Positions 20,238 through 62,392 of a stretch of DNA of 64,000 bases are shown here, in pieces. The DNA lies in NCBI RefSeq assembly GCF_009834535.1, contig NC_045696.1, positions 10,418,001 through 10,482,000 on the forward strand. The letters are read 5' to 3'. The DNA comes from Camelus ferus (Eukaryota). Within the stretch, counting starts at the first letter, position 1. Each line of letters opens with the position of its first letter. The notes under the pieces were generated by a model. That model was not told the origin of the DNA. It made no database searches and saw only the letters and a list, made by a program, of their open reading frames with translations. The position numbers were made by a program, and so were the translations under genes.

Positions 20238-20351
20238 TTCTTTTCTTCTCTTTTCTTTTCTTTTTTTTTAATGGAGGGACTGGGGATTGAGCCCAGGACC
20301 TCGTGCACGCTAAGCATGCACTCTACCACTGAGCTATATATATCCTCCCCC
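20238..20351 (-). mobile_element. tRNA-derived (Vic-1-like) SINE in IFNAR1 3' region
   Basis: A/B-box head TATAGCTCAGTGGTAGAG...GGCTCAATCCCC, A-rich tail, TSD TAACTTGCTTT. Confidence 0.88.
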
Positions 20352-21441: not shown

Positions 21442-21681
21442 TCACACAGGTTCCTCTTGGAGAAGTCCTTCACTTATTTTACTTCCACTGTTTTCATCTT
21501 CATTAGAATAGTTTCCTGAATCTCGACTAGTTTGGGAACTGTATTTTTTGTAATCTTCACCAATTTGATCAGTCTCTTCTATTGTAGTAACAGTGCTTGT
21601 ATTTTCAATTATAAAACATCTTTCCGTTTGTTCCTCAGAAGTGGAAAGGAGGAGGTTCCTCAGTGGCTTTTCAGAGAAACA
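21442..21681 (-). CDS. IFNAR1: IFNAR1 exon 11, coding part (cytoplasmic tail)
   Basis: [26 protein letters not shown]...[15 protein letters not shown]...EEPV*; TYK2-binding segment and beta-TrCP degron DSGNYS (21505-21522); TGA at 21442-21444. Confidence 0.96.
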
Positions 21682-22888: not shown

Positions 22889-23034
22889 CTCATCTATAGT
22901 GGAAGGAGGTTTACTTGACGGGAAGAACACATAACTGACGCATCTCAAGAGGGCTTTCACAACGTAAATGACAACGACGATAGAAAACACTGCAGTGCAA
23001 ATTCCAGCTATGAGCCAGGCTTTGGAAGTATTTC
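22889..23034 (-). CDS. IFNAR1: IFNAR1 exon 10 (transmembrane and juxtamembrane)
   Basis: [49 protein letters not shown]; 146 nt; YVFFP motif. Confidence 0.96.
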
Positions 23035-23778: not shown

Positions 23779-23929
23779 CTGGTTTGGTTTCCTCGCACAC
23801 AGTGTCACTGAAAACACTGCTTTTGTTCCACCTGTTGCTCTCAACCAGTGCTCTGGCTTTGACACAATATACCGTCAGCGGTTTCAAGTTAGGAAAAGTA
23901 AAATCAGTTCTCTTCTCTAGAACTCTTCT
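23779..23929 (-). CDS. IFNAR1: IFNAR1 exon 9
   Basis: [50 protein letters not shown]; 151 nt. Confidence 0.95.
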
Positions 23930-25858: not shown

Positions 25859-26016
25859 CTCAGCATTTGAAGTGTTTTCCCGAAAAACAACTTCATAAAT
25901 TAGCGGGTAAAGCTGGTACCCAGACTTGTTTTCAGACTCTTCTGGAGCCCCGATGGAGACGCGCAGTGAGTCCTCACCAATGAATTTCACGTGAATGACT
26001 GGAGGAAATATGACAG
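25859..26016 (-). CDS. IFNAR1: IFNAR1 exon 8
   Basis: [53 protein letters not shown]; 158 nt. Confidence 0.95.
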
Positions 26017-26125: not shown

Positions 26126-26325
26126 TTTGCATTTCGGTATTAAATTTTTTCTCTTCAGACCACAGAGATGTAGTATTTCCATCCGCTGCTCGTACACGGA
26201 TGGAGTAAATTCCTTTTGAGAAAACACTTTGAGGAAAGACGCAACGGGTTGTTCTGACATTTTCACAGTTTGGTATTTGTTTCCATTTGTCTGAATGGTC
26301 CCCAGGAATCTTTTTTAAAAAGGCA
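26126..26325 (-). CDS. IFNAR1: IFNAR1 exon 7
   Basis: [67 protein letters not shown]; 200 nt. Confidence 0.95.
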
Positions 26326-29375: not shown

Positions 29376-29499
29376 TGGAGCCACTGAGCTTGAAAGGTCA
29401 TGTCGGTCATGTTTTCAAATGTGTAATCCCATTTCAGAACATAGATCTGATTTTCAGCACTGATCTCTATATTTTCTGGCGAAGGCAGTTTATGCTCCA
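29376..29499 (-). CDS. IFNAR1: IFNAR1 exon 6
   Basis: [41 protein letters not shown]; 124 nt; donor gtaagt. Confidence 0.95.
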
Positions 29500-30374: not shown

Positions 30375-30516
30375 CTGTGGTAGTTATACAAGACACCGGG
30401 CTATAGACACCGAATTTTCTTGATGAACGCAGTTCTGCTCTCACTTTTAAACAATAAGTAGTCTCTGGTGAGAGTCTATAAATTTTATCTCTGGAATAAA
30501 CACTTTCAGTCCTTTC
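30375..30516 (-). CDS. IFNAR1: IFNAR1 exon 5
   Basis: [47 protein letters not shown]; 142 nt; AG/GT boundaries. Confidence 0.95.
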
Positions 30517-30632
30517 CTATAATTTAAAAAAACAGAAGCCTGTTTGTTAAAAAAGTGTAAAGTCAAATTTTAGAATCAATTCACATCATTTTTTTCCCTC
30601 TCACATCAAACAAAAGTGAAAGTAACACTTAC

Positions 30633-30791
30633 TTCTAGACTGGAAGAGTTTTCCCAGATAACCAAGCTATACAGAAAGTTTGACTTGATCCATAGCCCAC
30701 ATGGTACTATCTTTTGTTCCAGGAGGAGAGATGTTTACTATTATCGCCTTATCTTCAGCTTTTAAACGTACGTCTGGAGGACCAATTTGAG
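30633..30791 (-). CDS. IFNAR1: IFNAR1 exon 4 (contains +1 frameshift)
   Basis: [36 protein letters not shown], then frame slips (VKLSV*); the next frame reads [17 protein letters not shown] up to donor gtaagt; 159 nt. Confidence 0.93.
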
Positions 30792-32813: not shown

Positions 32814-32995
32814 CTTTTTTAAATGGTACAAACGGGGGAACCTCATGCCACTGAGAAGTGCTGTTTCCTTTTTCTGCTCTTATGCGCAATTTAATATTTT
32901 CGTAAACACTTCTTAAGTGGAGTGAAGAAAAGCTGCATTCGGTACGAGTAACATACTGACACCCAAGCAGTTTTCTCCAATTACCCATCCCTGGT
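32814..32995 (-). CDS. IFNAR1: IFNAR1 exon 3
   Basis: [60 protein letters not shown]; donor gtaaga; 182 nt. Confidence 0.95.
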
Positions 32996-36753: not shown

Positions 36754-36877
36754 ATTTGATACTCTGCTGAAAAAGTCACGTTCTTGAAATATCCACCGCT
36801 CCTGTTCCACTTCAGGGTGAAACTGTCATCAATGATGGAGACCTCTCCATTTTCAGGAGGTTTCAGATTTGTTCCTT
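36754..36877 (-). CDS. IFNAR1: IFNAR1 exon 2
   Basis: [41 protein letters not shown]; acceptor tttacag, donor gtacgt; 124 nt. Confidence 0.95.
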
Positions 36878-40311: not shown

Positions 40312-40468
40312 AGGGGGAGGGTATAGCTTAGTGGTAGGGTGCATGCCTGGCATGCATAAAGTCCTGGGGTTCAATCCCCAGTACCTTACTTAAAAAACAA
40401 AACCTAAGTACCTCCCCCCCAAGAAAATAAGACACAAGTAAACAAATTATAAATTAAAAATAAAAAAA
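40312..40468 (+). mobile_element. tRNA-derived SINE
   Basis: GGGGGAGGGTATAGCTTAGTGGTAG head; TSD AAGAACTAAATTGT. Confidence 0.88.
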
Positions 40469-41849: not shown

Positions 41850-42990
41850 CTCGCACACCCAGAACCCGCGGAGGTGGGAGCCCCGGGAACAGTCACAGGG
41901 CAGGAGGGATAGCGAGGAGGGCGCCCCCAAGCAAGAGGCGTGGAAAGATCTTGAACATCACTTTCTCCCGTTTGATTTTCGAGCCCAAGTCGGTTTCAAT
42001 GTGAGCGCTGTGACCACGGACAACCAGAGAGGAAGTCTGTCCCTCCCACCCGCTTCCAGATGCCCAGGTTTCCCAAGCTGCCGCCGTTCAGCCTCGCGCC
42101 TCGCCCCCGATCCTGCGCGCGGACCCCTATCTCTGACCTGCAGCTTCGGGCAACACCCATGGCGCTCCAGCGACCAGCATCAGGGTCGCCACGCCCAGGA
42201 GCGCGAGCATAGTCCGCGGGCCGCCGTCGACCCCTCCAGTTACATCTTCGGCTGCCTCAGGTAGCGCAGCGCGGCGCTAGGGAAGCTTTGGCGCACAAAC
42301 CACTCTGGACCCCGCGCTCCACGCTCCACCGGCCCCCTCCGCGTCGCCCTGCCCCGCCCCTCGGCGCTCGTCACCCGACCCCCGCGCACGCGCCGTCCCT
42401 TCCGTGCGCGCCCCACCCCTCCTCAGTCGCCCCGCCCCCTGCCTTCGTCCCCTCCCCCTGCTCCCGTGCACGCGAGTGGGACAGCGGTGTGCCGCCCAGC
42501 CGCCGCCTCCCTTCGCCTCTTTTCGGTCAGGGACTGCCCAGTAGCCTTCCGTCCTCTCGTTCCGGGAAGACCACGCCTAGCCCGAGGCCTTGACCCTTGG
42601 AGGCACGCGGAGCTTTGCCAGTGCTCATGCGCAGCCCTTGCGGTCTGTAGTTCCCCGCACTCCTTCCGGGTAGTTGCAGCCTGAGGCACTGCCGGGCCCT
42701 CGGGGCTCTCGCCTTCCCCCGCCCGGCTCGCGGACACGGGAGCCTGGAAAAGCGGCGTTGGGGCGGCTTGGGGATTAAGGGAGGAAAGAATGAGGAAGCT
42801 CCCGGGAGAGCCAGGCCGTTTCCTTTATGCAGAGCGCGATGAACGTGGGGTAGGCTCGAGTCAAACCGGGACACATGGAGCGTTCGTTTTCGGGGCAACT
42901 TGGCCCGGGGCGTATGGGCCCCTTGGAGGGGGTCGTGAGTTTCTGGGTTGGAGGTGGTCTCCAGAACAGCGTTCTGTAACCTCTTTTGAG
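41850..42990. promoter_or_regulatory. CpG-island promoter of IFNAR1 with GC boxes
   Basis: High GC and CpG density over exon 1; GCCCCGCCCC at 42351-42360 and 42429-42438; TTCCGGGAA at 42560-42568. Confidence 0.9.
42138..42210 (-). CDS. IFNAR1: IFNAR1 exon 1 (signal peptide)
   Basis: MLALLGVATLMLVAGAPWVLPEAA, donor CAG|GTCAGA, within CpG island. Confidence 0.95.
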
Positions 42991-47325: not shown

Positions 47326-49664
47326 GAATTCAGTTAAGGACTAGAGAGCAGACAAATTTGGTTTTCTTGTAGCCACATTATAAAAGTAAATATAAATAGG
47401 TGAAATAAATGTTATTTAACTCAATGCAACCAAAAATATTATTATTTCAACATGTAATCAGTATAAAAATTATTAATGAAATACAAAATAGTATTAAAGA
47501 CAATAGTCTCTTTTAAATCTCAGTTTATTTACAAGAACCTTGTCAAATCCATTTTCTGAGCATTTGGTTAAAAACAGCAAACATAATTACTGAACACACT
47601 TCATTGGGCCAAATAAAGAGCTAGACATAGTCACATTTTCCAAAAGTGACCAAGTAGCAGCCCCACTGCACATTTCCACCTTGTGGAACGCCACTCTGTT
47701 CTCACGTGTGTCACGCAGCACTGAATGTGACGTGACCCTCTGACACTGGCAGTAAGTGAAGGTGCTGGTGTTAGATCACATATCAAATATTAGTAAAGCT
47801 TAGTTTATTTATCTAACAATGCAAGTAGAATTTTATTGACCCTTGAAATCTCTAGTTTAAGGTCGCCTGTGGGAACTGTCCCCAGTTGCCTTGAGAGTGA
47901 TGTTCTGGGTCTGTTCTGGTGTGGCTGGCATGGATCCCGGCGAGCTGACAGCACTTGCTTTCTTCTAAAGCCCTTTCTGTAAACCCGGCCTCCTGCTCAG
48001 TAGGGATGGCGGGTGTGGCAGCTGGTGGAGGCCAAGCCCCTTTTACCTGTTGCTGATACACTTCAAGCACACTAGTTAACGTGTGCATATAGAAGCCAGA
48101 GCATCACATTGTTTATTGAAGTTCCCATAATATCCACTTAATCCAGAAATGGAAAATTCAGGGATACCCAAAGGCACTGGGTGTCCAAGAACTATTTCAA
48201 AAGGGGTCAATCCATGTCTCCTATTTGGCATATTCTGGATCTTTATAGGGGTCAAGGGGCAAAGCTTCTGGCCATTTAAGTCCAGTTCTTGACAGATCTT
48301 TCCTAAAGTTCTTTTTATGTCTGGATTTTTTATGTTCCACTTGCCTTGATGATTAAGGATGAAATTTTGAGGAGTACCTCATAGTTTTTGCAAACGTGTG
48401 GTTTATCCCTGCTGTAAAGTGAATTCCTTGGTATTCAGTTCATAAAGGAATGCCAAAACAAGGAATAATCTTGGTTATTAATTTCTTTGTCACTGCTGTG
48501 GTATTGGCACACCTGGTCAGATAGCATTCAGTCCATCCTCTAAAGGTACAGACAATAACAAAGAGGGAGAGTAGCCTAAAGCTGGAGGCAAATCTATACA
48601 GGCCACTTGCTCTGCCATGAAGGGCAGTGAAAGTCTGGGAGGACTTCCTGGGGTGTATACTGATTTCTTCCGGAAGTTTGGTGAGATTTACAAGTAGTGC
48701 ACTGGGAAGTAATTTGGCCAGAAATTTTGTGAATGGTAGGATGAAACCAGTTTGTTTAGTTCCTTAACTATTCCCGCATCAACACATATATCCTGTTTGA
48801 CGGGAGGTAAGTGCAAGCCAGAAAGTGGAAAGAAAAGGATCTCCAGGAAGTCCATTTGGCCCATCTGATAACTGGCGCCATTTTGTATCCATTTGTCTTT
48901 TTCGGATTGTGGGGCTTTGGCCTGATAGTTACTAGTATCAGTCAGGGATGAAGGCACGTTTAAAAATTAGGTGGAGAAAGGGTAAGAGGTCTTGTTTTGC
49001 TCTGTCAACCCTATCATTCCCTAAAGATAGAGCATCTATTTCTTAGTATGGGCTGAGCAGTGAACAATAGCAATTTTAGAAGGGAGGTGGAGAACTTGTA
49101 ATAGGGCAACAATTACATGCCCATTCACAACAGGAGTACCTGCAGAGGTTAAGAATCCATGAGGTTTTCAGATTGAGCCAACAGCATGGCAGACTCCAAA
49201 AGAATATTTGGAATCTGTGTAAATCGTGGCAGCTTTCCCTTCTGCTAATGTGCACACTCTCGTAAGAGTTATGAGTTCAACAGCTTGGGCTGGTTGTATG
49301 GTGGGCAAAGATTATGCTTCAAGCATTTCAGGTGGGGAAACTATGGCATAGCCAGTTATTATTGGAAATTTTGAGAGCCATCACAAAATAAAAGTAAGTC
49401 AGGGATGTCCAAGAGATCTTCTTGTGGCTTTGAGACCATTTCTATAGTTTCAAGGCAATCATGTGGATGGAGTGGGGCTCTCCACCGTCAGGAGCAGGTG
49501 TAAAGTAGCTGGTTTTAGCGTATGACCGTGATGGAAGATGATGGAAGGGTTAGTGTTAAAAGCCCGCTCAGAGGTAGGTGGTTTGTTGCCCATGTAGGGA
49601 GATGCTGTATCCCGTGACCTGGTAAGACAGCAGACACAGCATGGGGAACATCAAGATGAATGCA

Positions 49665-49790
49665 GGGGAGAAGGTATAGCTCAAGTGGTAGAGCACTGCT
49701 TGGCACGCATGAGGTCCTAGGTTCAATCCCTGGTATTGCCTCTAAAAATAAATAAACAGACCGAATTACCTTCCACCATGGGAAAAAAAA
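49665..49790 (+). mobile_element. tRNA-derived SINE inserted in ERV pol
   Basis: GGGGAGAAGGTATAGCTCAAGTGGTAGAG head; TSD ATGAATGC. Confidence 0.85.
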
Positions 49791-62255: not shown

Positions 62256-62392
62256 TGGGGGTTCAAGGGTATAGCTTAGTGGAAGAGTGCATGCTTAACA
62301 TGCACGAGGTCCTGGGTTCAATCCCCAGTACCTCCATCAAAGTAAATAAATAAATAAACCTAATTACCCCCCCACAACAAAAACAAATAAAA
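62256..62392 (+). mobile_element. tRNA-derived SINE
   Basis: GGGTATAGCTTAGTGGAAGAG...GGTTCAATCCCCAG, AAAT tail. Confidence 0.85.

Follow-up and report, generated by a model that had tools for sequence, protein, structure and literature searches.

The gene for interferon alpha/beta receptor 1 (IFNAR1) in the genome assembly of the wild camel, Camelus ferus, carries one base too many in its fourth coding exon, and the sequence comparisons described below indicate that this base is very probably a sequencing-consensus error of the assembly. A single-base insertion error in the consensus would have added one base to exon 4, and the animal's own gene would be the ordinary, intact, single-copy camelid IFNAR1, with 11 coding exons and 565 codons. 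Errors of this +1 kind would occur in the coding exons of the assembly often enough to be measured, and IFNAR1 would be among the genes struck.

We re-read the exon in the window, by which we mean the whole 64,000-nucleotide stretch of DNA that was analysed. Exon 4 lies on the minus strand at 30791-30633, between an AG acceptor (30793-30792) and a GT donor (30632-30631), and corresponds to the start of the second fibronectin-type subdomain in the alignment to human IFNAR1. Its first 37 residues align with residues 105-140 of the human IFNAR1 chain 3se3_A, and the exon also aligns to the solved human and mouse IFNAR1 chains 3s98, 3se3, 8y31 and 3wcy. The exon is 159 nt long, whereas 158 nt are expected. 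Continued in the reading frame of exon 3, it meets a premature TAG at 30669-30667, after codon 167; the next frame is open through to the GT donor. The surplus base can be placed at 30686-30684, in the C-A-A-G within GATCAAGTCAAAC, a two-base run with no long homopolymer, where removal of one A or of the G restores D-Q-S-N, the camelid reading. Comparison with camelid IFNAR1 places the switch of frame precisely, as the upstream frame fits up to 30682 and the downstream frame from 30680. The preliminary description of this DNA, made from the letters alone, had reported a base too many near 30684-30686, an exon of 159 nt with its phases, the TAG and the resulting 167-aa product, and the expected IFNAR1 reading in the shifted frame; all of this stood on re-reading.

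The rest of the gene is in order. We determined the exon junctions by a splice-junction search of the window against camel IFNAR1 protein, in which every one of the ten introns had a single GT-AG solution. The gene runs along the minus strand from the ATG at 42210-42208, which opens the 73-nt coding part of exon 1 (42138-42210), through exons 2 (36754-36877, 124 nt), 3 (32814-32995, 182 nt), 4 (159 nt, as above), 5 (30375-30516, 142 nt), 6 (29376-29499, 124 nt), 7 (26126-26325, 200 nt), 8 (25859-26016, 158 nt), 9 (23779-23929, 151 nt) and 10 (22889-23034, 146 nt, with the transmembrane segment) to exon 11 (21442-21681), which has 237 coding nt (21681-21445) followed by the stop codon. The coding lengths sum to 1696, that is 3 x 565 + 1, so that exactly one base is in surplus across the whole IFNAR1 coding sequence. 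The claim that the ten other exons are open, with intact splice sites, is borne out both by this search and by the 12 exact protein segments described below. Intron 4 is just 116 nt long (30517-30632, minus strand).

The identity of the gene is clear. A protein search with the first half of exon 4 gave 44 hits among 47 candidates, nearly all of them interferon alpha/beta receptor 1, and the domains precomputed for the protein encoded in the window are PF01108, PF09294 and PF00041 (tissue-factor-like, interferon-binding and fibronectin type III). Over its full length the protein is an orthologue of camelid IFNAR1, with 99-100% identity to the dromedary and domestic Bactrian camel proteins and 97% to that of alpaca. 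Upstream of the gene, at 46-64 kb of the window, 125 open frames of the minus strand were scanned against Pfam; no receptor exon was found there (IL10RB upstream and IFNGR2 downstream are the expected neighbours), and weak RNase_H and HGWP matches alone were returned. The RNase_H match (E 2.9e-4, below the Pfam cut-off) falls in a 47-aa open frame at 49171-49311 on the minus strand and is probably a retroelement remnant. Four matches to the tRNA model, of 32-43 bits and just over the Rfam gathering score, were seen at 62265-62336, 40317-40389 and 49670-49741 on the plus strand and at 20279-20337 on the minus strand; they are probably the heads of tRNA-derived SINEs, not tRNA genes.

We compared the site with the same position in other camelids. 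DQSNF is read there in four of five aligned camelid sequences, namely two dromedary records, domestic Bactrian camel and alpaca, and in three of these four (dromedary, domestic Bactrian camel and alpaca) IFNAR1 is an intact protein of 565 aa. The fourth, a GenBank dromedary model of 563 aa, is without a 33-residue stretch of the RefSeq models (AFLKK...VFPQS) and has a 31-residue insert (CLNVSAGARV...) in the cytoplasmic part; it looks like a gene-prediction error, and nonetheless has DQSNF at the exon 4 site. Outside the break, the wild camel protein differs from that of the domestic Bactrian camel by a single amino acid. This is residue 347 in exon 8, where the wild camel has F (in HVKFIGED) in place of the L of dromedary, domestic Bactrian camel and alpaca; the species may differ here, or the F may reflect a polymorphism or a base error. 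No second Camelus ferus IFNAR1 record was present among the 44 protein-search hits. Short open frames covering exon 4 in assemblies of public runs gave five hits among six candidates, none from camel and the best with 83% identity, and a metagenome scan with a 36-nt stretch of exon 4 gave no matches.

The break has already been flagged and patched in public by the NCBI pipeline. The top protein hit, XP_014417094.2, is named by NCBI 'LOW QUALITY PROTEIN: interferon alpha/beta receptor 1 [Camelus ferus]', and of the 13 proteins in its 90% cluster it alone bears such a name. The 12 coding segments found in the window are all identical to this record and span its residues 1-565; these exact segments include its V163/N164 junction and the F in HVKFIGED that is unique to it. 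The exons of the window are therefore those of the flagged model. At the site the NCBI model reads DQVNF, changing frame by skipping one base, apparently 30681. According to a passage of the Merfin preprint, the GNOMON 'low quality' label is given where the model supported by an aligned protein contains an indel giving rise to a frameshift or a stop, and the assemblies rich in low-quality genes are almost all based on ONT or PacBio CLR reads (10.1101/2021.07.16.452324). A literature search for 'low quality protein' together with Camelus ferus found nothing, and a search on IFNAR1, camel and pseudogene showed no camel IFNAR1 defect among the matches listed. One listed preprint reports that IFNAR1 was amplified weakly from the blood cells of dromedaries.

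As a calibration, we turned to large exons expected to be open elsewhere in the assembly and counted their frame breaks; these exons were few and of our own choosing. The clearest case is exon 11 of BRCA2 (contig C14, 17332868-17337929), which is cut into open frames of 399, 657, 201 and 474 aa in frames 2>3>2>3, the result of three breaks (+1, -1 and +1). BRC repeats are found in three of these open frames, and in a 3387-aa relative the four pieces align in order to residues 657-1030, 1032-1657, 1647-1845 and 1846-2313. These breaks are almost certainly consensus errors. Three frame breaks in one BRCA2 exon cannot be biology, and single-base consensus errors therefore exist in unique coding sequence of the assembly, at sites other than long homopolymers. 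The last exon of the desmoplakin gene (contig C20, 5043117-5046354) is likewise split, into 794 and 308 aa in frames 1>2, by one +1 break. The 794-aa piece matches PDB entries 5dzz and 1lm7 and the 308-aa piece matches 1lm5, and the break falls between a piece matching plakin-repeat domains A and B and a piece matching domain C. The same type of lesion is thus found in genes that cannot be null, three times in BRCA2 and once in desmoplakin.

Six other large exons were unbroken: that of RAG1 (1056 aa) and those which, from their Pfam families and gene structure, we take to be XIRP2 (3128 aa), XIRP1 (1856 aa), MKI67 (1828 aa) and two plakin exons (2073 and 1807 aa). A plakin-repeat gene on contig C25 (859156-874308), probably epiplakin, has near-identical 1.57-kb repeats and lies in at least five open frames; this fragmentation may reflect assembly error in the repeats or spurious GC-rich frames. 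We left this region out of the tally because near-identical, GC-rich repeats yield long spurious frames.

The clustered protocadherins provided a larger sample. A PF08266 search of the assembly gave 61 matches among 78 candidates, 51 of them in the protocadherin cluster on contig C3. The open frame is 788-996 aa long for 46 of the 51 and short for four (320, 693, 422 and 399 aa), and the remaining match is a 73-aa remnant. Each of the four short ones is made up of two pieces, the second in the next frame (2>3, 1>2, 2>3 and 3>1); both pieces carry cadherin domains, and jointly they span the length of an intact paralogue, so that each is a single +1 shift. Four of 50 full-length variable exons, at 98.32-98.86 Mb of the contig, are accordingly broken by +1. 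In one of them, PCDHGA2, the surplus base is an A, in CGCACA[A]GCACGG. PCDHGA2 is also the one gene for which a further record with the label Camelus ferus, a 796-aa protein from a 3.05-Mb contig, is intact at the break site; it is 100% identical to the upstream piece over the aligned 91% of the query. This record may come from another animal, and alone it does not separate error from polymorphism. Over 91% of the same query, PCDHGA2 is intact in dromedary (about 99.5% identity) and alpaca (96%) as well. The orthologue comparison covered PCDHGA2, and the other three protocadherin breaks could be true pseudogenes.

Taken together, the large exons sampled, about 169 kb, hold eight single-base breaks, and seven of the eight are +1, as in IFNAR1. 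Four fall in about 43 kb where a null is not credible and four in about 125 kb of protocadherin exons. The rate is uneven, with three of the eight in one BRCA2 exon and six other large exons clean. It amounts to about 4.7e-5 per base, or roughly one break per 20 kb of large exon sampled, and predicts about 0.08 breaks (Poisson range 0.035-0.16) in a coding sequence of 1695 nt. We infer that the IFNAR1 break belongs to this class of assembly errors. That an assembly error was quite plausible had been suggested from the beginning, and with breaks of the same kind now known in BRCA2, desmoplakin and four protocadherin exons, it is the best supported reading. The same early description had held the AA dinucleotide to be an unlikely place for such an error; that argument fails because the PCDHGA2 break sits at a like site, CA[A]G.

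A decaying duplicate had also been proposed, and more broadly IFNAR1 could be a species-wide pseudogene in the wild camel, or the locus the decaying duplicate of a functional copy elsewhere. The frameshift itself, and nothing else, speaks for either, and both are very improbable. Exon 4 DNA has one match in the whole assembly (2.09 Gb in 2043 contigs), and the intact camel IFNAR1 protein gave 11 matches among 15 candidates, all at this one locus and one per exon; neither search revealed a second IFNAR1 copy in the assembly. Decay would be expected to leave more damage than a single lesion, yet all splice sites are intact and one residue differs from the domestic Bactrian camel, and across the whole gene we found no sign of further decay and no lesion in common with dromedary, domestic Bactrian camel or alpaca. 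With a single locus in the assembly and no second lesion, the duplicate was rejected. Still harder to credit is that the base is real and the frame is rescued, by an alternative splice site or by programmed ribosomal frameshifting. We found no point in support of such a rescue. By inspection, no GT or AG is so placed that moving the donor of exon 4 or the acceptor of exon 5 by one base would recover the frame, and skipping of exon 4 would join phase 1 to phase 0 and be out of frame. Rescue by alternative splicing or exon skipping was therefore rejected from the sequence and the exon phases.

The alternative of most interest, and the headline of the preliminary description, is a natural IFNAR1 null: the sequenced wild camel would truly have a one-base insertion in exon 4, heterozygous or homozygous, as a very young loss-of-function allele. 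Its product, a protein of 167 aa, would have lost the membrane span, the cytoplasmic tail and the greater part of the ectodomain, and the mRNA would probably be removed by nonsense-mediated decay. The base is, after all, present in the assembly, an otherwise perfect gene is the expected look of a very young allele, small and inbred populations can harbour such alleles, and complete IFNAR1 deficiency in humans is viable. Against this, the same type of lesion occurs three times in BRCA2 and once in desmoplakin, where it is not plausibly real; IFNAR1 is intact in the other three camelids; and to NCBI the site is one where the frame needs correction, in the sense that the Merfin preprint, in the passage cited above, gives to its label (10.1101/2021.07.16.452324). 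The headline is in this respect unsupported, and we regard a real insertion in the sequenced animal as unlikely. That the critically endangered, inbred wild camel carries a young frameshift allele abolishing IFNAR1 is likewise unlikely.

The two possibilities can be compared in numbers. Nucleotide diversity of wild camels in innate immune genes, counting SNPs and indels, is given as 8.4e-5 in Table 3 of PMC7468183. At this diversity, an IFNAR1 coding sequence would hold about 0.14 differences of any kind. We estimate that about 1-3% of such differences would be frameshifts. The expected number of artefacts per coding sequence, about 0.08, is thus far above that of real frameshifts, about 0.14 x 1-3%, which favours error over a real variant by roughly 20-60 to 1. 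Our confidence in a consensus error, while high, is set lower than this ratio because the exons were picked by ourselves, the errors are uneven, three of the broken protocadherins are possible pseudogenes, and because of the way in which the assembly may have been polished. Polishing with short reads of the same animal, if it was done, should have removed a homozygous error from a unique exon, which counts against error. A 2020 wild camel assembly is described, in a passage of PMC9374477, as built from high-coverage long reads and chromatin mapping. Among 24 public sequencing runs, 20 contained a 3-kb stretch, none of these 20 with all of the sampled words; the best value, 0.98, was reached in seven possible source runs, and is weak evidence for an error, as it does not tell which words are missing.

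The break can be set beside three known systems. It resembles the uncorrected indels of long-read assemblies, marked by GNOMON as 'LOW QUALITY PROTEIN', in that one surplus base interrupts an otherwise perfect conserved gene, the NCBI model of exactly this sequence has the label, and the lesion type recurs in the assembly; this class of error and its effect on predicted proteins are treated in parts of 10.1101/2021.07.16.452324 and PMC7468183. The IFNAR1 site differs, however, in being a two-base run and not a long homopolymer. As in inherited complete IFNAR1 deficiency of humans, a premature stop in the ectodomain would abolish type I interferon signalling, although the human alleles have been confirmed in patients' reads, cDNA and cells, whereas the camel allele comes from one assembly consensus. 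Finally, the break shares with the unitary pseudogenes of mammalian immune genes a frame-breaking lesion in a single-copy immune gene. In contrast to such pseudogenes, which gather several lesions and are shared among relatives, the camel gene shows a single lesion, its splice sites are intact, and so are its orthologues in three camelids.

The first reading of the sequence was thus accurate, and the feature that it described is most likely an artefact. BRCA2 and desmoplakin are among the genes hit in this assembly, and any apparent gene loss taken from it needs read-level confirmation. Were the insertion real, a natural null of the type I interferon receptor would exist in a large mammal that is a reservoir host of zoonotic viruses, a matter of relevance to antiviral immunity in such a host and to the genetic load carried by an endangered species.
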